Shown one piece after another: positions 4,956 to 56,593 of a stretch of DNA of 64,000 nt. The notes below the pieces were generated by a model. It did not search any database. It worked only from the letters and a program-made list of their open reading frames with translations, and was not told the DNA's origin. Both the position numbers and the translations under genes were made by a program. The stretch is from Myxococcota bacterium (GTDB lineage: Bacteria; Myxococcota_A; Bradymonadia; UBA7976; UBA1532), in the NCBI GenBank assembly GCA_036337435.1, contig JAYZEG010000010.1, positions 25,171 to 89,170 of the forward strand, given 5' to 3'. Within the stretch, counting starts at the first letter, position 1. The number at the start of each line of letters is the position of its first letter.

Positions 4956-5702
4956 ATGGATGCACTCGGAATAGATATTGGTGGCACCGGTATCAAAGGC
5001 GCTGTTGTCGATACCACCACGGGTCGTTTATTGACCGACCGACACCGACTGCTCACGCCCAAGCCTGCAACACCCACCGCTATTATAGAAACCGTGAGAG
5101 AGATACAGACCCATTTCAACTGGAGTGGTGCTATCGGCATTGGTTTGCCGTCGGTCATACAAGGTGGCGTTCCTCAGACAGCTGCTCACATCAGCGAACA
5201 ATGGATCGGCTTGAACGCAAAGGAATGGTTGTCGCAAGGGCTCTCGACATCGGTCACACTGCTCAATGACGCGGACGCTGCCGGATTAGCCGAGTTCAGG
5301 TTTGGTGCAGGCCGACGACAAGCCGGAACGGTTCTCATGGTGACTCTTGGTACGGGCATTGGCAGCGCGTTGCTGATAGATGGCCAATTAGTCCCCAATA
5401 CCGAATTCGGTCATCTTCAGATGGGCTCACTCGAGGCTGAGCAATATGCGGCGGACTCGATCCGGAAAATTGAGGCACTGGATTGGGCTGTTTGGGCTGC
5501 TCGACTCAATGAAGTCTTGGGGGCTTATGAAGCCCTCCTCTGGCCGGACCTTCTCATTCTCGGGGGCGGAGGAAGTAAGAAGTACACAAAGTACCAGCAT
5601 CTGCTCAAGACAAGGGCACCGATCGCCGTAGCAGAGTTTGGCAACATGGCTGGAATCATTGGTGCTGCCGTAGCAGCTGCTCAGTCAGGCAGTCTGCGTT
5701 AA
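4956..5702 (+). CDS. ppgK: polyphosphate glucokinase (ROK family)
   Basis: N-terminal ATP-binding motif [27 protein letters not shown] and GTGIGSALL. Length of about 250 aa is typical of PPGK. Confidence 0.8.
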
Positions 5703-7364: not shown

Positions 7365-8291
7365 TCAATCGTCGGATTGAAACTCGGGGTCGAGAAAAAT
7401 AATCTGATCGGCACGCGTCGAAAGTCGTAACATCGTGCGATATCCGGATGTTTTTCTTTCGAACAAATCTTTCACATCGAGCACACCGGCCTTCCTCAAT
7501 TGGCTGCGCAGTTTGCCCCGCTCAAAACCAAGCCGTTCGATCCCCGAATTGGGATTACCGCCGAGTTTGAGCCACTGTTGATGACTCTCCGGTGCTGTGA
7601 GCCAGCCGCCCTCCGTGTAACTCTCATCTCTGCGGACCAATGCATAGGCAGCCAGTACGCGGACGCACTCCCCTGTGACTCTGACAGAGCTTTCGTCGCT
7701 TTCGAAACAGGCCCAAAGCTCCGAAACTGAAATTCGCAGGCTGCATTCATCGATGATCAAATGAAGTTGAGCCACCAACGTCGGTGCACCGAGAACCGGA
7801 AAGAAGAGACGATATAGCGAGGTCCCCGAACTGACAAGATCACCATCTTTCAACTCGTAGGATGCGTCAGCTCCATGTTCCCATCCAAACCGATAAAAGC
7901 GGTCATCGACACACTCGTAGAGGTCATCTAACGCATCTCCGCTGACGAACTCATTGTTTTCGACATTCATCGCGAATGCTTGTGGCGGAGTTGTATCGGT
8001 TAATTCAGCAACGATGCCGTCATCGATGGTAATGCGGGCGACACGGCGACTTAGGCTATTGATGATACGCCAGCCGTTTTGATCAACCGAACCGGACCCT
8101 CTCGTTTCATCGACACGATTGAGCGGTCGCCAACCCCAATTTTGACCTAACCAACGAATCTCAAACCAGAACTGAGGCACACTGGATGAAAAAAACCGGG
8201 CATGACAGCTCCAATGCCGCCCAACAAGACAAACCTCTGATATGGGAATGATTCGCGTAGTAGAACCATCTGTTAATTTCAACGCCCCCAT
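7365..8291 (-). CDS. FHA-domain protein (hypothetical)
   Basis: N-terminal segment ..TRIIPISEVCLVGRHWSCHARFF...FWFEIRW.. resembles an FHA fold. The rest is uncharacterised. Confidence 0.5.
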   Translation of the reverse strand: MGALKLTDGSTTRIIPISEVCLVGRHWSCHARFFSSSVPQFWFEIRWLGQNWGWRPLNRVDETRGSGSVDQNGWRIINSLSRRVARITIDDGIVAELTDTTPPQAFAMNVENNEFVSGDALDDLYECVDDRFYRFGWEHGADASYELKDGDLVSSGTSLYRLFFPVLGAPTLVAQLHLIIDECSLRISVSELWACFESDESSVRVTGECVRVLAAYALVRRDESYTEGGWLTAPESHQQWLKLGGNPNSGIERLGFERGKLRSQLRKAGVLDVKDLFERKTSGYRTMLRLSTRADQIIFLDPEFQSDD

Positions 8292-8487
8292 TTAACGCCC
8301 CACACAGTCCACACGTCTCCACTAATCAAACCACGCCCACCGAAAGCACGTGGTGCGCAAATATGACTGGGATGCAGTTATGATATGAATTGAGCTGCTG
8401 ATTTTGCAAGAGGCGTTAGACAAAAACCCCCTCTACACAACCAGCAGACCAATGGGTTTAGAGCCCTTCGAAAGACTCCAGAGCCCC

Positions 8488-8877: not shown

Positions 8878-10335
8878 TCAATCGATTGTGCAAAAGGCTG
8901 GAAAACTGACGTTTAATCCAGTCTGGAACGGACTCGGCGAATTCAGCCTGTGGGCAAATAAAAATTCGAGAAACCAAGGGGTGAACAGCGGCTTCCACTC
9001 ATGCCCTGTATCGTGATTACACGTCGCAACAAGGTGGCCATTGGATTTAAGCTTAGGAATGGCATCACTGGCGAAGGTAGAAAAGTTTTGACCTGCCGAC
9101 TCATCGCAATCACCACCCCAACCGTAAATGATCGGCATGGTGTTGGCGTTTGAATTAGGCATATCAAAAATAATTCCGCCCGAGTTGATTGCAGCTGCAG
9201 CAACAGTCTCTGCAAATTGACTCACAAGAAACGTTGTGAACATGCCTCCGCCGCTGTCTCCCGCAAGATACAGTCGTTCAGGATCAGCGCCGAGTGTTTG
9301 TTGAGCACATGTCAGTAAGTCATCCACCAAAGCGACGTCTGGATTATCGCCAGGCCGCCCTTGATCCCATTCGATTGCCAAACGCCGGGAGTAGGGTGAG
9401 ATCAAGATAAAATCAAAGGGGTCTACCAATCGATTCATGGCCGTGTCTTCTTCAATATCATCGACTTGATCCGCATTGATTCCATGAAACAGCAAGACTG
9501 TTTTGTACCGACCTTGCTGCGAGTGAGACTGCGGAAGTCGAATTCTCACCGTCCGTTCAATGCCGCAACTCGTAATGATGTTTTCCCCACTCACGAGGTT
9601 TGGACAGGCGTTCGGTTCGATCCGTTCACATGTTGTTTCCGCACCAGAGGAGCTGCAGCCATATGGTGAATCGGGCCTACGTTCAGACCACGGAACACCT
9701 CCAAAAGTGCTCTGCTGGAGCGCTAAGTCTAGAGTTTCAACCTCCCCTTGAACAAAGCCACAGATCGAGGCATTGCCCGTTACAACACCAATGAATTCTA
9801 GATCGAAGACCACATCGCTGCCCGTAGGGCTAAAATCACCGGGCATGACCGCATTTTCAAATGCCGCGACAAACTGCCCATTTTCATCCACATTCACATC
9901 ACTGGCGACAGCGAACGGCTCGCTGACTTGATCGTCCTTGTAGGCTCTCAGCCGAAGCTCGCTGAATCGCAAGCCTTGGTCATCAGCAAACACATCAATT
10001 TCGAGCTGGGTGTCGAGGAAAAAGTCGATTTCGGCCAGATAAATTCGCAGAAAATAAGCATCTGACTGCAAGGGGTCTTCACTGCCTTCAGGAAGCAAAC
10101 TGCGGACATCGACATCGGGCATGTCTTCATTGGTTTCAGCGGGCATTGACATGGATACAGACGTCGGTTCCATCACCGGATTTCCGTCTTGTTCTTCACA
10201 GCTTCGATAATCGTGATAGGTGCCACCGAGTTGGTATGGATCTGTCGTCGATTTATGGGAATCACCACTGCAGCCAAATACAAGCACGACAAGGCTGGTG
10301 AGCCCAACTCTAAACCCAACAATTTGATTTTTCAT
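8878..10335 (-). CDS. secreted lipoprotein, LpqC/PHB-depolymerase-family alpha/beta-hydrolase (esterase)
   Basis: Start set at MKNQIVGFRVGLTSLVVLVFGCSG (lipobox). The C-terminal half carries ..LLFHGINAD...RLYLAGDSGGGMFT.. (GxSxG) and a ..H.W tail, typical of COG3509 esterases. Confidence 0.7.
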   Translation of the reverse strand: MKNQIVGFRVGLTSLVVLVFGCSGDSHKSTTDPYQLGGTYHDYRSCEEQDGNPVMEPTSVSMSMPAETNEDMPDVDVRSLLPEGSEDPLQSDAYFLRIYLAEIDFFLDTQLEIDVFADDQGLRFSELRLRAYKDDQVSEPFAVASDVNVDENGQFVAAFENAVMPGDFSPTGSDVVFDLEFIGVVTGNASICGFVQGEVETLDLALQQSTFGGVPWSERRPDSPYGCSSSGAETTCERIEPNACPNLVSGENIITSCGIERTVRIRLPQSHSQQGRYKTVLLFHGINADQVDDIEEDTAMNRLVDPFDFILISPYSRRLAIEWDQGRPGDNPDVALVDDLLTCAQQTLGADPERLYLAGDSGGGMFTTFLVSQFAETVAAAAINSGGIIFDMPNSNANTMPIIYGWGGDCDESAGQNFSTFASDAIPKLKSNGHLVATCNHDTGHEWKPLFTPWFLEFLFAHRLNSPSPFQTGLNVSFPAFCTID

Positions 10336-13773: not shown

Positions 13774-14022
13774 AATTAACTCCTTTGTCTCATCACAGAG
13801 TGGCTCGATGGCGTTGAACACCGGCGGGACTGGATGTGTTCCCACAATCGGCTTGTTGCCGGAGAAATATCAACGCTGAATTAAACCAGAGTCAACATCT
13901 AAACGGCCTCGCTGACCGATTCAGTTCGACCTCAACTGACCCAAGTTCGGATCCCTATTGAGCGAAGGCCCATCCGCTGTTAGGCTGCGCCGGTTCCAGA
14001 CTAAAGAACTTCAGGGGGGATT

Positions 14023-15540
14023 ATGGACCAGTTCATGAGTTTTGTTGGTATTCTGACTTTGCTCGGTATCGCCTGGCTAATGTCCAACAATCGACGGTTA
14101 ATGAATTGGCAGACCATCGGCGTAGGCATCCTGCTACAGGTTATCCTTGGTGCGATTCTGCTCAAGTGGCAACCCGGAATCGACGGGATTTCGTCATTCA
14201 GCGACGGGGTGAAAGATTTTCTTAAATTGTCCGAGCAAGGGTCGGGCATGGTCTTCCAAGACCTAGGTGTGTCAGCAAAATCCGGCTTTCAATTTGCCTT
14301 TCAAATCTTACCAACGATCATTTTCTTCTCCGCCGTTATGGCTGTTTTATACTATCTCGGTTTGATGCAAATCATCATCTCGTTTATGGCTAAATTCGTA
14401 AAGAAAGCCATGGGCACGAGCGGGTCAGAAACTCTGTCCGTTTCAGCAAACATTTTCGTCGGTCAGACGGAAGCTCCGCTGATGATTCGACCTTTCTTGC
14501 CTAAAATGACGAAGTCCGAGTTGTTCACCGTGATGGTCGGTGGGTTCGCAACCGTGGCTGGTGGTGTACTGGCAGCCTACATCGGCATGGGTGTCGATGC
14601 AGGCCACCTGGTCGTTGCATCAGTGATGTCAGCGCCCGCTGCCTTGGTGATTGGAAAAATCATGTACCCGGAAACCGAGGTATCGCAAACGGCTGGGGAC
14701 GTCGCCTTGCCAGATATTGATTCCGGCGACAATGTAATCGATGCAGCCGCTCGGGGTGCCACCGATGGCCTAAAGCTCGCGCTCAACGTCGCGGCTATGC
14801 TGATCGCATTCTTAGGCTTGGTCGCGGTTGCCGATTGGTTATTAGGAGGCCTCGATTCTTTGATCGATGGCTCGATGCTCGGTGGCGAGCAAATGGCGAA
14901 CAAAGAGTATTCCGGTTTTTTTCCTGGAAGCCTGACAACGATTTTTGGAACCCTACTGGCTCCCATCGCCTTCGTCATGGGTGTGCCCTGGGCCGATGCT
15001 GCTGCCGTCGGGAACCTGCTGGGTCAAAAGCTCGCGGTGAACGAATTCGTCGGTTATCAAACCCTGAGCGACTTGATTAAATCAGGCACGATCACCGAGC
15101 GGTCCGCCATTATTTCAACCTACGCATTGTGTGGCTTTGCCAATTTTGGCTCCATCGGGATTCAAATCGGTGGAATCGCTGCTCTTGCACCTGAACGCCG
15201 GAAAGACCTCGCTTCGATGGGTTTTAAGGCCATGCTAGGTGGTGCATTCGCGACCTGGCTGACCGCATGTGTTGCCGGACTGATGATCGGTGCACCAACC
15301 ACCGCAGAAACAGGCAAAGCGGTGAAGACTCAACCAGCCGTTCACTCAGTCGTGACCAGTTCCCGCTCCGTTGTTGCACCGACCATTGAGGAGACTGCAA
15401 AAACGATCATCAGAACGTCCGAGGCTCAATTGGCTCGAGCCACCGTTGGTGCCGTTGACAAGCAGCCCAATACGAAGGCCAATCGCCCTTTGCCGCTTAC
15501 CCACGGGAAAGAGGCACGAGACGATCGCACGGACCCGTGA
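14023..15540 (+). CDS. nupC: concentrative nucleoside transporter (CNT/NupC family) with low-complexity C-terminal tail
   Basis: Characteristic CNT segments ..FVGQTEAPLMIRPFLPKMTKSELFTVMVGGFATVAGGVLAAY.. and ..GNLLGQKLAVNEFVGY..YALCGFANFGSIGIQIGG.. Confidence 0.8.
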   Translation: MDQFMSFVGILTLLGIAWLMSNNRRLMNWQTIGVGILLQVILGAILLKWQPGIDGISSFSDGVKDFLKLSEQGSGMVFQDLGVSAKSGFQFAFQILPTIIFFSAVMAVLYYLGLMQIIISFMAKFVKKAMGTSGSETLSVSANIFVGQTEAPLMIRPFLPKMTKSELFTVMVGGFATVAGGVLAAYIGMGVDAGHLVVASVMSAPAALVIGKIMYPETEVSQTAGDVALPDIDSGDNVIDAAARGATDGLKLALNVAAMLIAFLGLVAVADWLLGGLDSLIDGSMLGGEQMANKEYSGFFPGSLTTIFGTLLAPIAFVMGVPWADAAAVGNLLGQKLAVNEFVGYQTLSDLIKSGTITERSAIISTYALCGFANFGSIGIQIGGIAALAPERRKDLASMGFKAMLGGAFATWLTACVAGLMIGAPTTAETGKAVKTQPAVHSVVTSSRSVVAPTIEETAKTIIRTSEAQLARATVGAVDKQPNTKANRPLPLTHGKEARDDRTDP

Positions 15541-19429: not shown

Positions 19430-19879
19430 TCATGCTCCGTCAGCGCCCACTTCCATGGGCGCAATTCGACACTGCCCATCGGGTTCACAAACCCCGCCCC
19501 GCGACTTAAAACGCCATCTTGCAAACAGGACGTATCCCCAATCGAGAATCCGCCTCAGACCAGGGACCCGCGAGAGCGGAACGAGGGGTCTAAAGAGCGT
19601 TCGTGCATACAACTGCCGAAAGACCTCAACGCCCTCAACCAACTCTCCGTTGGACAACCGGCCGTGGATGCGCAGCATAATCTCTGCGTACGTCAAACCG
19701 GTTTCTTTCTCCGAGTCGAAGTCACGTGTAGAAATGTCTGTGAAAATCAGTCGCGATTGGCGGTCGAGCCGCCGCAAAAGATTGATTTCGGCGGTACAAA
19801 GACGGCATCCGCCGTCGTAGTAGACCTCAAAGGGGGTGCTGTAGTCGGGCCGCTGGACCGGAACCGTATTCTGAGTCAT
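19430..19879 (-). CDS. DCC-family thiol-disulfide oxidoreductase (DUF393, YuxK-like)
   Basis: VYYDGGCRLCTAEINLL matches the DxxCxxC signature of the DCC1-like family. Its stop codon directly abuts the stop of the convergent carboxypeptidase gene. Confidence 0.75.
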   Translation of the reverse strand: MTQNTVPVQRPDYSTPFEVYYDGGCRLCTAEINLLRRLDRQSRLIFTDISTRDFDSEKETGLTYAEIMLRIHGRLSNGELVEGVEVFRQLYARTLFRPLVPLSRVPGLRRILDWGYVLFARWRFKSRGGVCEPDGQCRIAPMEVGADGA

Positions 19880-20334
19880 ATGCTAAAGCTCCTTCGTTGT
19901 AATGACGACAGAGCTCGGTGGGAGGTTACGGACAACCCGGGTGGACCAATGGGAGTTTTGTTCAGATACGGAAGCATTGAAATCGATGGTCTCGGCTGAT
20001 GGGGGAACATGAGAAGAAACGGATTCTTACAGATGCCGCTTTCAATCAACTCTTCAATAAATGCATCAAGCAATGTTTTCTCCGAAGGTTATCACCAAAT
20101 CATTGAGGTGGCCCGATCGCCCAGCCCCTCGGTAATTTCGTCCCGACAAAACAGCAGTTTTACAAATGGTTGACGTCGCTTCGAGCAGGCTGGCGGTCGC
20201 GATGAGTGTCCCCAAATTGAACAAACCTATGGAACATACCCATTTAAAAGTAATTAATTACAGCTATTTAAAACTTTTCTGAGAAAAAACTACCGTTCGT
20301 ATGGTTTTTCACAATCTGAAGTGATAGTATGCCG

Positions 20335-20450
20335 CCACATAACGACTCGGACATCTGTTTCGGTTCGTCGCTGCTTTCTCGTACCCCCCCATTCCCCTAC
20401 ACGAGAGAGCGGTTGACCGCTCCCTGCCCCGGGAGCGGTTTTTTTTTCTC
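20335..20450 (+). promoter_or_regulatory. candidate 5' leader/attenuator (or small RNA) with alternative hairpins upstream of the peroxiredoxin
   Basis: Extended -10-like TGATAGTAT at about 20319-20327. Hairpin A is GAGCGG-ttga-CCGCTC (20407-20422). It shares CCGCTC with hairpin B, CCGCTCCC-tgcccc-GGGAGCGG plus T9 (20417-20447), so the two are mutually exclusive. Confidence 0.45.
20417..20447 (+). terminator. rho-independent terminator (8-bp GC-rich stem + T9)
   Basis: CCGCTCCC tgcccc GGGAGCGG TTTTTTTTT. No complete plus-strand CDS ends within 500 nt upstream. Confidence 0.7.
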
Positions 20451-20535
20451 AAAACTGCCTTTGGTAGCCATATAGGATGGATAGGCAGGTCGCCCTGAAC
20501 CGATAACAACTCAGACATCGAGGTGGATAAAGACG

Positions 20536-21079
20536 GTGACCCAAGTCGGAGTATTCATGCCGAAGGGTGTTTACAACACAATGTGGAATGAATCGATCAC
20601 ACGCATCGATGCCCAAGGCGTATTCAATCATCAAAGGGTGCTGCGATTCACCGTTCCAGGCGCATTTGCGCCTGGCTGCACGCAAGAACATCGACCCGAT
20701 CATGTGCGAACAGCAAATGAGATTTACAAAAACGAGTTTGGCATCATCGCATCATTGACTGTCGATGATGCCTGGACCATAAATTCTTGGGTACAGCTTA
20801 CCAATGCAAAGGGTCCAATACGAACGCGTTCCAATGGCAGTCACGACGATGAAAGTAAAAGAGACATGTAAACTTGGCTTGGAATCTGTTCTCACACGGA
20901 TAAATATGAGTGTCCGATGCAGGCGGTACTCAGTGGTCACCAAAGAAGGTGTTGCCAAACGCATCTACGAGGACAAGCGAATGAGTGAATTCATTGGGGC
21001 TCGTAACACGTTAGCCTTTCCATCGGGCAATAGACCTGACACTCCATCGCAGGGTCAAACAACGATTACAGCCAACTGA
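20536..21079 (+). pseudogene. Prx5-type peroxiredoxin, interrupted by a +1 frameshift near 20810-20822
   Basis: GTG start with an AGGTGGA RBS. Frame 1 reads ..RFTVPGAFAPGCTQEH.. (peroxidatic Cys motif) and ..DDAWTINSW.., then stops at 20871. Frame 2 (20804-21079) continues the Prx5 C-terminal pattern ..KLGLESVL...RRYSVVTKEGVAKRIYED.. (compare KRFSMVVQDGIVK). Confidence 0.6.
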
Positions 21080-21108
21080 CTGACTTAATTAGATAGGGAG
21101 ATGAGGTC

Positions 21109-21750
21109 ATGAATCCGATGGCATACCTGATTACAGGACTTCTCTTTGGCTGTGGGGCCAGTGTCTCTAAGTCGACAAAATCATCCAATAAATCGCCAAA
21201 TATCCAAGAGAGCACGCGGCTACTTTCCCATGCAGATATGGACGATGAGGAGGCGATGCTCGATGAAGGCGACAGCGACCATTTGTTCATTCCCGATCCA
21301 ATTCGGGCAGACCGTAGCAAAATAAGGTGTACTAAAAGCTCCAAATCAGACTTAGAGACCGTCCAATGGGGCCACTTATTGGCCTTCGACACCAGTGGCT
21401 GCGCTGTCGTTGATGTTGGGTTGGACGCCAAGGGGATCCCCGTCCTGGTTAAAAATAAGCGAGACCTTTTGAGACTGACAAACTGTGAGCAAGTCAGACC
21501 CCAACCAGAGATCCTGGTTGACTTCAAAACGCAGCAAGTGCTCGTGATTGAGGGACTGCATAGCAAGATGGCCTCGGAGCCTCTCGATGCCTGGTTAATG
21601 TACACGCAGAAAACCCTTCGAATCGGTTTGGTCTTCGACTGGCAATCAAGCGAAGAAACTCGACTGTATCGTGCGATTGTCATTGCACCACGTCGCACGA
21701 CTCGCATCGAAACAGACCTCTGCTACGCCCCGACAATAGAGTCTAATTAA
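21109..21750 (+). CDS. hypothetical lipoprotein
   Basis: Signal plus lipobox LLFGCGAS. Preferred over the fully overlapping minus-strand ORF 21066-21707, which is Ser-rich with no signal or domain. Confidence 0.45.
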   Translation: MNPMAYLITGLLFGCGASVSKSTKSSNKSPNIQESTRLLSHADMDDEEAMLDEGDSDHLFIPDPIRADRSKIRCTKSSKSDLETVQWGHLLAFDTSGCAVVDVGLDAKGIPVLVKNKRDLLRLTNCEQVRPQPEILVDFKTQQVLVIEGLHSKMASEPLDAWLMYTQKTLRIGLVFDWQSSEETRLYRAIVIAPRRTTRIETDLCYAPTIESN

Positions 21751-21982
21751 CGCCTGTCATTTTAAATTTCGAGCAGCCCGTCTCGCCCACGATAAAAGTC
21801 AGCATGGACCGTGTTAGCCGAGAAAACACGATGTGCCATCGCGTCAACCGGAGAGAGAGCAGCCAGTCGTCAGTCTGGCAAAAAATTGGTCACAAACTCC
21901 GTTTTAATCACTCGAATCTTTCGGGGGAAACAGACTCCAAAAAGCTGCGAGTCAAAACATGGCTAAGTCGGTAATTTGGGCA

Positions 21983-22876
21983 TCACTTGAGCTCGAAGAG
22001 CAAGAAGTTCCCTTCGCCCGCATCCTGAGCCATTATTGTATGTTCATAACGAGTACTGGATAAGAAAGACATAGATGTCACAAGGCCACGCCAAAATGGG
22101 TTTCGCATCGTGCCATCGCCCCTGAATGCAATGGCTGCAACGCTGAGATGACGACCCGATACGTCGATCAAAGCTCCCCTAAACACATTGCCTATTTCTC
22201 GTAAGGTATTCTGTTCGTCGGGATTAAATCGTCGATTCGTTTGAACCTGATTGACCGATGCGCCAGGCCGTAAGCAGCGGATGAGCATGTGTGCCAAATT
22301 AAAGTCGAGTCCAATGACGAAGTTGATCTCCTCGTCTGCATCGGCATAGGCAATGGCAGCACCGACAGACCCGTCAAATCTAAATCCGTCACTCTCAATG
22401 AGTGACAGACGCCGGTCCACCATGGCACCAAAAGCCTTTATACAGTGACCGGCTAGTGAGAATTGCGACCCGTCTGACGAGTTCGTTTCCGCAGGGGGAC
22501 GAGGTAGATCCAAGGCAATGTGAATTGCCTTTTTGATTTCCGCTGGCGAAAATGGCTTGGTAACGACGAACGCTGCCCCAGCCCGAAGTGCCTCCATACG
22601 TTGGTCATCACTGGCATTTCCCGTAACCATGCCAACGGGTACTTGGGCTCCGTTTCGAACGAAGGCGCGTAAGAGCTCGAGTCCCGATATGCCAGGCATG
22701 GCCCAATCAGTAATGACAAGATGTGGTCGAACCTGGCGAAAGATCGGCACCGCTTGTCGAGCATCCCTCGCCTCATAGAACGTTGTCCGCCAGCCAAAAG
22801 AACGGATGGTTCTGACCAAAACCGCACGCATTGCCGCGCTGTCATCAACAACCAGAATTCGGAGTGTATCAATCAA
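21983..22876 (-). CDS. response regulator: CheY-like receiver fused to CheC/CheX-like phosphatase domain
   Basis: Receiver motifs LRILVVDDSAAMR, ..ITDWAMPGISG.. and ..FVVTKPF. The C-terminal domain carries ..DEQNTLREIGNVFRGA.. (E-x-x-N-x-x-G active-site pattern of the CheC/CheX/FliY family). Confidence 0.7.
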   Translation of the reverse strand: MIDTLRILVVDDSAAMRAVLVRTIRSFGWRTTFYEARDARQAVPIFRQVRPHLVITDWAMPGISGLELLRAFVRNGAQVPVGMVTGNASDDQRMEALRAGAAFVVTKPFSPAEIKKAIHIALDLPRPPAETNSSDGSQFSLAGHCIKAFGAMVDRRLSLIESDGFRFDGSVGAAIAYADADEEINFVIGLDFNLAHMLIRCLRPGASVNQVQTNRRFNPDEQNTLREIGNVFRGALIDVSGRHLSVAAIAFRGDGTMRNPFWRGLVTSMSFLSSTRYEHTIMAQDAGEGNFLLFELK

Positions 22877-29066: not shown

Positions 29067-29476
29067 CTGCGTCCAACATGGCTAGGTCTCGATTAGTCTA
29101 GCATGATCTTATCGTCTGCACCCATGTTCATTGGACATCCGACTCTATTCTAAACGGATAGCATCATCGGAATGTCACAGGTCAAACGTAGATGACTGAC
29201 CGACGGGCTGACGCCTCAATTATAACGCCCGATGAGGGCAATTAATGACTCGGTCTTTTGACCCCACTTGTGTGACCTACTGTCCACATTTATCGGTTCA
29301 TGACGGCAAGGTTCACCTGAGCTTGGCCTCCCCGTAAACTTGGCATGCGGCTTGCTATCTCATGGACGCAGGAAAGCAACTTGGGTCCAGAAGGAGGACC
29401 ACCACGAGGGTCGATGCCGTGACACGTACGTCAACGCATCGGACAAGAAATTCAGTCTCGGCCTACAAGCTATAGA

Positions 29477-29533
29477 GGTAGCGGGCATCACGTCCCCCAT
29501 CCCCCCCAGTGGATGCTCGCTACCCTCATTTTT
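29477..29533 (+). repeat. hairpin repeat copy 1 (13-bp stem, C-rich 22-nt loop, T5 tail)
   Basis: GGTAGCGGGCATC ... GATGCTCGCTACC, with one G:U position, then CTCATTTTT. Confidence 0.7.
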
Positions 29534-29598
29534 ACCAGGGTGCGTGACAGTCTGGTTGCTAAATGAGGGTGCTCAATAAGCGAGTCAGACAGGCTAAA

Positions 29599-29657
29599 GG
29601 TAGCGGGCATCACGCCCCCGTCCCCCCAACAGGATGCTCGCTACCTCTCATTTTTTT
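29599..29657 (+). repeat. hairpin repeat copy 2 (same stem, C-rich loop, T7 tail)
   Basis: GGTAGCGGGCATC acgcccccgtccccccaacag GATGCTCGCTACC tctcaTTTTTTT. Confidence 0.7.
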
Positions 29658-29713
29658 CGGTAGGCAAGCCGTAAACCCATACGCGTTGCGGTTCTTGACA
29701 TGACCTAAACTCT

Positions 29714-29773
29714 AGGCAGCGGGTATCCGTCTCCCCTCCGTCCCCCAAACAGGATACTCGCTGCCTCGCCTCA
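29714..29773 (+). repeat. hairpin repeat copy 3 (stem with compensatory substitutions, no T-run)
   Basis: GGCAGCGGGTATC ... GATACTCGCTGCC. Both changes relative to copies 1 and 2 (T to C, C to T) are matched on the opposite arm. Confidence 0.65.
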
Positions 29774-29826
29774 CTTAAAACAAAGCAGCTACCAGGGACC
29801 AGACGGGTTGGTCAATACCCCCGAAA

Positions 29827-53905: not shown

Positions 53906-54056
53906 GGGTTGACCACCCACGTTTTCTCACTGCCGGTGAGTGCTGTTCCCTAAGCCAGTAAGGCTCATAATTCTTGCGATTCTCTTGCGCTCTGGTGCGT
54001 TCTCATCCAAGCTCAACCAAATAAATCGCTCAAATCCTTAAAACCTGGGGGGGATC

Positions 54057-54755
54057 ATGCCACTTTCTAAGAAGCTTGCCGCGGAATTTTTTGGCACATT
54101 TTGGCTCGTGTTTGGCGGGTGCGGAAGTGCAGTACTCGCAGCCGGATATCCAACTCTCGGAATCGGGTTTGTTGGTGTGTCATTGGCATTCGGCCTGACG
54201 GTATTGACCATGGCCTATGCCGTCGGTCACATTTCAGGCGGGCATTTTAATCCTGCGGTGACCGTCGGTTTATGGGCTGGGGGCCGCCATCCGGCAAAGG
54301 AGATTATCCCCTATTGGATCTCACAGGTCGTTGGTGCCGTTGCAGCCGCAGCCGTCCTATATGTGATCGCAAGTGGCAAAGCGGGCTTCGATCTCGCAGG
54401 TGGTTTTGCATCAAATGGATACGGCGAACATTCACCCGACAAATATTCGATGACCGCTGCGCTCATCGCAGAAATTGTTCTCACGATGTTTTTCGTCTTG
54501 ATCATCTTAGGGTCGACAGACAGTCGGGCACCTGCGGGCTTCGCACCTATCGCCATTGGTCTCGGTCTGACATTAATCCATCTCATCAGCATTCCTGTCA
54601 CCAACACATCAGTCAATCCGGCGCGAAGTACGGGTCCTGCTCTCTTCGTTGGTGATTGGGCCACGTCCCAACTCTGGCTTTTCTGGGTCGCCCCCTTGGT
54701 TGGCGCCGCCATTGGTGGGATTCTCTACAAAGGCTTGTTCGATAAGGCTGAATGA
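54057..54755 (+). CDS. aqpZ: aquaporin Z
   Basis: Two NPA boxes ([15 protein letters not shown]), ..[20 protein letters not shown].. and six TM helices. Confidence 0.9.
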
Positions 54756-55091: not shown

Positions 55092-55306
55092 GGTCTACCC
55101 TATTTTGAACATCGGAGATGGTTTTTCACCAACCATACGGCAAGTTATGATGCATCCCAAGCAACATTGGCACCACATCAATGGTTGGCTGTCTTCAAAA
55201 CCTGATGGGCACAATTGGGCTCAGCGTGGAAGAAATAAATAAAAGTTTAGACCGATTCTAACCGTCAGACGTTTATCTGACCGACGCCACAAGCTGGGGG
55301 GACCTT

Positions 55307-56071
55307 ATGAATCAAGCGCGGGCTAGAATTACATTAATTTCACTTTTTTTCGGAGCATGGTTTGGCGGATGCCAAATGCCAAATGCCTCGGACCGACTCA
55401 GCTGGGACAGAATCCATAGTGATATCAACCAAGACCCTATCCTTACTCATGATGGGATCGATGATGTTCTGAGCAAACTCGACACAAGAAGACTGAGTGA
55501 ACTTCCCGATGAATATCGACGGACTGCCAAATTAGACCAAATAGCTCGGTCCCATTATCGCCATCGCACGTTCTATGTTGTTCGACCGAGCGATCGGCAA
55601 AAGTTCGTCGTCGGCCATTTTCGGATCAGAGATTTTCTGCCTGAAACCAGTGCCGCTGATGCCCATGGTGATGAACAAAGCCCCCATTTTGACTGGCCCG
55701 TAGATGCTGAAGAGACCTACCTTCTCATCGATTCCAATTTGCTTCATCGGCTCTTAGATCTGATCCTAGAACTCAAGAAGCAAGGACACGACCATGAGGC
55801 GATGACCATCTACTACGGCTATAGGCCACCTGCTCATAACCACAGCATTAATGGAGCAAAGAAAAGCCAGCATTTATTCGGAAAAGCAGTGGATATGTGG
55901 GCTGGCGACATCAACCGTGATGGAGAAACAGACATGGACGACAAAATGATCATCCTCAATATTCTCGAAAGAAAAATTTTCCGTGGGACGGGTGGTGTCG
56001 GACGTTATTTGGACGACCCGAGAGCCATTCATTTCGACACCCGACGGAAAAAAGGGCGATGGGACAAGTAA
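55307..56071 (+). CDS. peptidase M15-like (DUF882/YcbK-type) lipoprotein
   Basis: Lipobox WFGGC. ..YGYRPPAHNHSINGAKKSQHLFGKAVDMW.. matches the DUF882/M15A zinc-ligand arrangement (H..., D...H). Confidence 0.7.
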   Translation: MNQARARITLISLFFGAWFGGCQMPNASDRLSWDRIHSDINQDPILTHDGIDDVLSKLDTRRLSELPDEYRRTAKLDQIARSHYRHRTFYVVRPSDRQKFVVGHFRIRDFLPETSAADAHGDEQSPHFDWPVDAEETYLLIDSNLLHRLLDLILELKKQGHDHEAMTIYYGYRPPAHNHSINGAKKSQHLFGKAVDMWAGDINRDGETDMDDKMIILNILERKIFRGTGGVGRYLDDPRAIHFDTRRKKGRWDK

Positions 56072-56593
56072 ATCTCTACACGCTGTCCCGACCCATTAAT
56101 TGACCATCCGAGGTGTTCTGAGAACATCTCATTGAAATCACCAACAGGGGGCACGTAAATCATTGTACTCAAGGCACGATTGCCTCAACGAGTAAAATTC
56201 CATCAAGCTTTTCTTTGGCTCGTGTACCATGGACCAGGGGGGTACATGGGGGGTCAACTGGCCGGTCGGGTCAACACAATTTGCCTACACATCATTGGAT
56301 GGCTGCTGCTCGTTTCCGGGTGCGGGGACATCAAAGACCAGCCACGGGCCCCGTCCAGCGACGCAGGAACTCTTGATTACAGTATGGCTGACACATCGCT
56401 TGATGTCTCATATACCCCCAATTGATTCGACCATTGACCTGACCGGCCTCGATGCCGTGACGGCCGAGGACATGACCGCACTCATTGATGGACCCATTTG
56501 AGACAGTATCGAAATCAACTTGGATTCAACGGCCCCTGACGATGCAAGACGGCCCCCCGATGCGCTCGATTCAGCGACACTTGGGACCTAGGT

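Follow-up and report, generated by a model that had tools for sequence, protein, structure and literature searches.

Small RNAs (sRNAs) that use C-rich loops to act on G-rich Shine-Dalgarno (SD) sites have been described so far in Actinobacteria, Bacillota and Alphaproteobacteria. The RsaE/RoxS RNAs of the Bacillota are sRNAs of ~100 nt in which unpaired C-rich motifs pair with G-rich Shine-Dalgarno regions and which end in a Rho-independent terminator; RsaE carries several CCCC motifs in its loops and linkers, and is itself under redox- or NO-responsive regulators. The 6C sRNA makes direct contact with its targets by means of C-rich loops, which form multiple G-C pairs with them, and reportedly does so without a chaperone (PMC6486639). 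Cuckoo RNAs carry the motif CCUCCUCCC in the loops of two to four adjacent hairpins, the stems of which vary while the loop motif is fixed (PMC4615179). In this paper, we analyse a 64,000-nt stretch of DNA from a Myxococcota bacterium (contig JAYZEG010000010.1; hereafter the window, with positions counted from its first letter), and in particular an element at 20286-20447 on the plus strand, which very probably is the gene of an independently transcribed, functional sRNA.

An earlier note on this DNA had taken most of the element (20335-20450) for a leader with mutually exclusive hairpins upstream of a peroxiredoxin gene, or else for an independent sRNA of ~115 nt. It is the latter proposal that conservation, promoter anatomy, structure and synteny support. 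The RNA represents a family outside Rfam; regulators of its kind are known, and its phylum is one that has been little studied. That it is a free-standing sRNA gene acting in trans by base pairing through its C-rich loop is the interpretation we favour, with moderate confidence. Bradymonadia-like marine Myxococcota are uncultured bacteria of predatory type, represented mostly by Tara-style metagenomes, and to our knowledge almost nothing is known about their sRNAs; a literature search returned no paper that pairs ‘Bradymonadales’ with ‘small RNA’. What emerges is an sRNA gene with clear limits, a defined promoter box, a defined seed and candidate targets that can be tested. Together with a second locus in the same window, it suggests that C-rich-loop sRNAs acting on G-rich SD sites may extend to the Myxococcota.

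The resemblance to the described families is partial in each case. Like 6C, which is found in Actinobacteria such as Mycobacterium and Streptomyces and targets G-rich mRNA sites, the flagged RNA would be short and independently transcribed, with a run of at least six cytosines in a loop. Unlike 6C, which is defined by its Rfam model and by two loops with at least six conserved cytosines each, it has a single C-rich loop that follows a hairpin of another composition, its promoter and phylum differ, and no 6C match was obtained at E <= 10 in 19800-20700. As in the cuckoo/CcsR RNAs of Alphaproteobacteria, a hairpin presents a C-rich, anti-Shine-Dalgarno-like loop, but the RNA lacks CCUCCUCCC, has one C-rich hairpin rather than two to four adjacent hairpins each bearing that motif, comes from a different taxon and has no Rfam match. 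The missing Rfam match also sets it apart from RsaE/RoxS, as does the arrangement of the RsaE motifs, which are multiple and lie in both loops and linkers. The features expected of base-pairing sRNAs in general can be read from the sequence: the element is intergenic and conserved above the neutral level, it has its own predicted promoter and a Rho-independent terminator, and it offers a conserved, accessible, single-stranded seed with a predicted unpaired probability above 0.99.

The conserved island

The window was placed among uncultured marine Myxococcota by means of the DCC protein encoded beside the element, a DCC1-like thiol-disulfide oxidoreductase whose gene (19430-19879, minus strand) is the divergent upstream neighbour. 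The source names of relatives of this protein include Bradymonadia bacterium, Myxococcales bacterium and Myxococcota bacterium. Two further lineages carry the element, which gives three with that of the window: the L001 lineage, consisting of L001-L003, L054 and L196-L198 (JGI, UBA and Tara-type assemblies), and the L007 lineage, consisting of L007-L009. Their DCC proteins share 80-81% identity with that of the window. No real plus-strand coding sequence ends upstream of the element, in line with the earlier note, which had seen no complete one ending within 500 nt; the plus-strand open reading frames (ORFs) that separate it from the DCC gene are short, and they lack conservation.

When the interval 19880-22000 was searched with BLASTN, only 20284-20455 found matches, at 89% identity in L001-L003 and 84% in L007-L009. 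This conserved island of ~170 bp contains an upstream box, an extended -10 element, a purine 7 nt beyond it, three hairpins and a terminator. In L012, a contig from the same species as the window, the match runs over 19880-20320, at 96% identity, and extends no further. Between lineages, the RNA is 89-91% identical and both flanks are ~50% identical in a global alignment, while the adjacent DCC gene has 35-45% identity at third codon positions and 87-90% at second positions. Judged by these identities, purifying selection on the RNA is no weaker than that acting on second codon positions of a protein.

Rfam 15, which the earlier note had named as a check, assigns the element to no family: there were no matches at gathering thresholds anywhere in the window, and relaxing the cutoff to E <= 10 over 19800-20700 brought up no meaningful match. 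The sub-threshold matches are terminator-driven noise, the best of them being anti-hemB with 18.9 bits against a gathering score of 49.5, a score that comes from the terminator alone. A search for tRNA and tmRNA found none.

A covariance model was built from the three lineages and searched against 63 pattern loci from GTDB, the 120 metagenome pattern matches listed and synteny-derived loci of distant relatives. Among the loci searched, it scores 145-149 bits, and does so in the three lineages only. The 63 GTDB loci had been retrieved with the pattern CCCCCATTCCCCT N30-60 T7, and by the covariance model one of them is a true homologue (L054, of the same lineage as L001); on metagenome contigs, the same pattern gave chance matches and no covariance-model homologue among the matches listed. 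Synteny walks through homologues of the DCC protein (L010, 70% identity) and of the neighbouring response regulator (L199-L201) revealed no further copies, even with filters off. Among the loci and metagenome matches listed, the sRNA family appears narrow.

Promoter anatomy and predicted transcript

Near the left end of the island stands an invariant box of 24 nt, AAAAACTACCGTTCGTATGGTTTT (20286-20309, plus strand), which covers the -35 region and ~20 nt upstream of it and is preceded by AT-rich DNA. The box is 100% identical across the three lineages, the intergenic DNA around it is unalignable, and the window holds no second copy at three or fewer mismatches. The extended -10 element pointed out by the earlier note, TGATAGTAT (TGnTAGTAT), is indeed present at 20322-20330 on the plus strand. 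The distance from the box to its TG is constant at 17 nt, across a spacer of variable sequence. The TG is kept throughout, and the hexamer reads TAGTAT, TAGTGT or TATACT in the different lineages, with T1, A2 and T6 retained and variation confined to non-critical positions. A purine stands 7 nt past the -10 in all three lineages (A20337 in the window). Read in order, the alignment thus consists of an AT-rich tract, the box, the 17-nt spacer, the extended -10, the purine, the conserved RNA, the U-run and again unalignable sequence.

From its conservation, the box probably serves to bind an activator or an alternative sigma factor. Sigma-54, extracytoplasmic function (ECF) and canonical -35 elements were compared with the sRNA promoter by eye and gave no fit, and a consensus promoter scan does not call this promoter. 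The predicted transcript of ~111 nt would extend on the plus strand from A20337 to the end of the U-run at 20447.

Fold and terminator

The flagged 116 nt fold with -44.2 kcal/mol, compared with -26.8 +/- 2.9 kcal/mol for 200 shuffled sequences, none of which does as well (z = -6.1). The minimum-energy and centroid structures both consist of hairpin 1 (20342-20368), hairpin 2 (20370-20413) and hairpin 3, the terminator (20415-20440), and these same three hairpins make up the minimum-energy fold in all three lineages, at -44 to -48 kcal/mol. Hairpin 1, which is not C-rich, has an imperfect stem and a 4-nt loop; the changes that maintain it across the lineages are one-sided, with a shift of register as well in the L007 lineage. 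Hairpin 2 has a 13-bp stem, with GAGCGG (20407-20412) in its 3' arm, and an 18-nt C-rich loop. None of the 13 pairs is lost in any of the three lineages, and four of them vary one-sidedly (G.U to A-U, G-C to G.U, U.G to U-A and U-A to U.G). Across the whole alignment, 99% of pair cells form, and each of the six one-sided substitutions preserves pairing.

The apical loop of hairpin 2, ACCCCCCCAUUCCCCUAC (20383-20400, plus strand), is the proposed seed. It has the form C7-AUU-C4 and is invariant between lineages except for the length of the C-run, which is 7 in the window (one assembly), 6 in the L001 lineage (seven assemblies) and 8 in the L007 lineage (three assemblies). The mean unpaired probability of the loop is 0.996-0.999.

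Hairpin 3 and the U9 tract that follows form a Rho-independent terminator (20415-20447, plus strand) that is invariant in all lineages and reaches -19.2 kcal/mol in isolation. Here the earlier note was borne out: CCGCTCCC (20417-20424) pairs with GGGAGCGG (20431-20438) around the loop TGCCCC, and T9 occupies 20439-20447. The full stem is longer than these eight core pairs, with 10 pairs (20415-20440), seven of them G-C. It is the strongest intrinsic terminator of the window; among the terminator-like patterns listed, its 7 G-C pairs out of 10 are the highest count and its T9 tail is the only one. Such patterns are as frequent in window positions 1-60000 as shuffling predicts (22 vs 20.8, 22 vs 20.2 and 27 vs 21.4). 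Protein genes in the window seem rarely to use hairpin-plus-U-tract terminators, and the terminator of the sRNA therefore stands out.

Proposed action and candidate targets

We propose that the extended -10 promoter, aided by the invariant box, would start transcription near A20337, that the RNA would fold co-transcriptionally into its three hairpins, and that the third of these, with U9, would terminate synthesis to give an RNA of ~111 nt. The middle stem of 13 bp would keep the loop permanently single-stranded, and the C-runs of the loop would act in trans, base-pairing with ribosome-binding sites rich in G and keeping translation from starting. By analogy, this is how 6C, RsaE/RoxS and CcsR/cuckoo work, in that their C-runs pair with G-rich ribosome-binding sites.

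Candidate targets were scored by combining duplex energy with target accessibility at 44 translation initiation regions of the window. RNAcofold was set aside, since pairing between a loop and an mRNA is pseudoknot-like in a concatenated fold. The accessibility-corrected energies have a mean of -1.5 kcal/mol and a standard deviation of 5.3; the four best values are -19.9, -12.6, -11.3 and -11.2 kcal/mol, and the next is -8.0 kcal/mol. The best of the 44 belongs to a hypothetical ORF on the minus strand (7365-8291), whose initiation region GUGUGGGGcguuAAAUGGGGG (8280-8305) is complementary to both C-runs of the loop together with AUU; the duplex has -26.9 kcal/mol, a value equalled by 0.3% of random 90-nt windows, and -19.9 kcal/mol after correction.

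The other three candidates lie on the plus strand and have SD sites that are plain G-runs. They are a MIP/aquaporin gene (start 54057), with a G7 run at 54047-54053 and a site that includes the start codon (54047-54059; -12.6 kcal/mol); the gene of a CNT nucleoside transporter (14023-15540, identified with Pfam), with G6 at 14014-14019 (site 14014-14025; -11.3 kcal/mol); and the gene of an M15-family (M15/MepK-like) peptidase (start 55307), with G6 at 55296-55301 (site 55296-55309; -11.2 kcal/mol). The window contains 24 runs of at least six G on both strands together, and three of the 24 sit 3-5 nt before the start codon of a real gene, namely these three. A rough estimate, based on ~55 genes with 15 nt upstream of each in 128,000 nt of both strands, would lead one to expect ~0.15 such coincidences. 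The SD sites of the other genes inspected are of the GGAG type.

The CNT gene is syntenic with the sRNA, at a distance of ~6 kb, and its G-run SD is kept in four lineages, as G6 in the window, the L001 lineage and L010 and as G8 in L007. Set beside the C-run of the loop, this gives C8/G8 in L007, C6/G6 in the L001 lineage and C7/G6 in the window. Taken together, these sequence features make the genes with a G-run SD suggestive candidates for regulation by the sRNA. No targets were found among the adjacent syntenic genes, which encode the DCC protein, a response regulator, a histidine kinase, an M14 peptidase and PhoD.

The ~70 nt upstream of the CNT start (13943-14013, plus strand) are themselves strongly conserved in L196 and L007, with the arrangement tccctaTTGAGC-N17-TAGGCTgcgccggtt. 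The block has no Rfam riboswitch match and, from its sequence, looks like a sigma-70-type promoter with a short 5' untranslated region.

The peroxiredoxin gene and other explanations

Downstream of the terminator, the window has a Prx5-like ORF (20536-21079, plus strand), which begins at GTG 20536 or ATG 20557, 89 or 110 nt past the T-run, in agreement with the ~90 nt given by the earlier note. It is a relic of the Prx5 type. Its alignment with residues 34-152 of human PRDX5 holds only across a +1 frameshift near 20820-20840, the PxxxTxxC motif reads PGAFAPGC, with loss of the catalytic Thr, and HLPGF has become HRPDH. We interpret it as a gene in decay, an assembly error being less likely. 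In the L001 lineage, the order of genes is M14 peptidase, DCC, sRNA, convergent response regulator and hybrid kinase, and in L001, L054 and L196 the terminator faces the 3' end of the response-regulator gene across an unconserved spacer of ~260 nt. TBLASTN in this lineage detected no trace of Prx or of the lipoprotein encoded next to it; the corresponding interval contains neither the Prx5 relic nor the lipoprotein ORF (21109-21750).

The earlier note had proposed that the element is a redox- or metabolite-responsive leader of this Prx gene. In such a cis-acting leader, a ligand, protein or RNA would open hairpin 2, and the GAGCGG thereby freed would pair with CCGCUC, block the terminator and allow read-through into Prx5. 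The sequence does offer the formal 1:2, 2:3 and 3:4 arrangement: GAGCGG at 20407-20412 is complementary to CCGCTC at 20417-20422, as the note had said, the Prx5-like ORF follows on the same strand with a GGAG Shine-Dalgarno site, and on paper the order of anti-antiterminator (hairpin 2), antiterminator (GAGCGG:CCGCUC) and terminator is that of classical attenuators and riboswitch platforms. The complementarity is real, but the either/or fold is not, the minimum-energy structure being three consecutive hairpins. In isolation, the anti-terminator hairpin reaches -9.1 kcal/mol against -19.2 for the terminator. Forcing the anti-terminator costs +13.6 to +14.6 kcal/mol across the three lineages (ensemble probability ~5e-9), and the terminator forms with P = 0.97 even if the 5' arm of hairpin 2 is blocked. 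During transcription, moreover, hairpin 2 already sequesters GAGCGG by the time the 3' arm of the terminator is made. The substitutions do not maintain the alternative pairing either: its core of 4-5 bp is present in all lineages, but its outer G-C pair is lost in two of the three through a G-to-A change at alignment column 79 that keeps hairpin 2 intact (U.G to U-A). The complementarity of GAGCGG and CCGCTC is a by-product, which exists because the 3' arms of hairpins 2 and 3 both end in GAGCGGUU; it is not a switch. Unlike attenuators and riboswitches, the element lacks a conserved same-strand gene downstream, a leader peptide and an aptamer match; no riboswitch or leader of Rfam matches it, the sequence past the terminator is unconserved (~50% identity), the L001/L054/L196 lineage has the convergent response-regulator gene in place of Prx or any other same-strand gene, and the one Prx5 that is present is frameshifted and without its catalytic Thr. 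An attenuator or riboswitch reading is not supported, and we judge a Prx5 leader highly unlikely.

Three further explanations concern the RNA or the DNA of the element itself. An independent sRNA might pair with no mRNA and act instead by binding or titrating a protein (a factor that recognises C-rich RNA, for example), the ribosome or machinery related to the anti-SD. Whatever speaks for a conserved and structured RNA with its own terminator speaks just as much for this possibility, the loop is invariant over 18 nt, which exceeds the 6-7 nt that a seed needs, and the complementary sites are short homopolymers. On the other side, conserved synteny offers no partner with an RNA-binding domain (the neighbours are the DCC oxidoreductase and a REC-domain protein), gene starts are enriched for G-run Shine-Dalgarno sites, and known C-rich-loop sRNAs use base pairing (PMC6486639), all of which makes a protein-binding role improbable in our estimation. 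An element that works as DNA would be an orphan terminator or insulator together with a regulatory site for the divergent DCC gene, conserved for reasons other than an RNA function; the case for it starts from the invariant box, which could be an operator ~410 nt upstream of the DCC start. Yet conservation is missing from the stretch that separates the element from the DCC gene, some 110 nt of hairpin-forming sequence are conserved with every substitution preserving pairing, the loops of the hairpins and the arrangement of -10 and +1 agree with a transcription unit, and an insulator would not require an invariant C-rich loop of 18 nt; we consider such an element very unlikely. A small protein gene has the least to commend it, with a chance that we put close to nil. 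A 48-codon ORF (20329-20475, plus strand) and a 69-codon antisense ORF (20309-20518) both exist, and a 62-aa antisense ORF has been called in L001 and L196, but relatives have GTG or ACT in place of the ATG at 20329, the C-run of 7, 6 or 8 nt breaks any reading frame that passes through it, and the frames of the existing ORFs differ by lineage. A protein-database search with the six-frame concatenated translation of the sRNA as query had no matches.

Public gene calls carry the 62-aa ORF as a hypothetical protein antisense to the sRNA, at 5447-5635 (plus strand) in L001 and 9447-9635 (plus strand) in L196. Because its frame differs between lineages, it is very likely a spurious annotation, one that public metagenome-assembled genomes now contain.

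Several points weigh against a trans-acting sRNA as we propose it. We infer the transcription start, and the RNA itself, from conservation; the -35 hexamer is poor (TGGTTT), so the strength of the promoter would hinge on the uncharacterised box. With three distinct lineages only, no base pair has a double-sided compensatory change, and shuffle controls for covariation are uninformative at a depth of three sequences. The complementarity to the targets is essentially a homopolymer of 6-8 nt, with low information content, and 13-mer complement matches are not enriched across the window (27 vs 19.2 +/- 4.7). The match in length between C-run and G-run amounts to three data points, of which the window itself is uneven (C7 vs G6). 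Finally, the sRNA was not found near the homologous genes of the distant relatives L010, L200 and L201.

A second locus with C-rich hairpins

The scan for sRNA targets brought to light a second locus, at 29259-29775 on the plus strand of the window and at 1358-1770 on the minus strand of L196. Flanked by genes for a Ser/Thr kinase and a Na/Ca exchanger, it consists of three tandem hairpins on the plus strand (29478-29527, 29599-29647 and 29717-29766), which have stems of 13-15 bp and loops with CCCCCAUCCCCCCC, CCCCCGUCCCCCC and CUCCCCUCCGUCCCCC, that is, with C5-C7 runs. In the 64 kb, these three and hairpin 2 of the flagged RNA are the only strong hairpins with a C-rich loop, and the hairpin 2 part of the covariance model weakly matches one hairpin of the array in the relative. 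The corresponding intergenic region of the L001 lineage has two such hairpins, with pair-preserving changes in the stems.

A sigma-54-type box, TGGCATgcggcTTGCT (29341-29356), with TGGCAT-N5-TTGCT at -24/-12 spacing, lies ~120 nt upstream of the hairpins in both lineages, and ~75 nt beyond it there is a conserved block, TTGACCCCACTTGTGTGACC (29259-29278). On these sequence grounds, the second locus is probably a sigma-54-dependent sRNA with multiple hairpins. Its layout in tandem (29478-29766) is reminiscent of the CcsR/cuckoo arrays. Because this second locus is present, the window supports the view that RNAs with a C-run in the loop are a recurring regulatory device of the organism.

A wider idea, which we offer tentatively and think rather doubtful, is a homopolymer circuit common to the clade, in which several sRNAs with C-run loops converge on a regulon of envelope and transport genes with G6-G8 SD sites (CNT, aquaporin and M15) and in which C-run and G-run lengths co-evolve. 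Such a circuit, if real, would comprise the flagged sRNA, with its sigma-70-like promoter and activator box, and the array at 29.3-29.8 kb, which is of the sigma-54 type and has two or three hairpins.

Further G-run sites

At the left edge of the window, the minus strand has a G9 run (397-405) followed by TGGGGTGATGACG. It may be the G-run ribosome-binding site of a gene that leaves the window; the reading frame that was tried held stop codons. Downstream of the M15 peptidase gene, two G6 runs surround TACAT at 56237-56253 (GGGGGGTACATGGGGGG; CCCCCCAUGUACCCCCC on the minus strand). The hairpin at this site is weak (-9.9 kcal/mol), and the site could be a further C-rich RNA element or a G-rich decoy.

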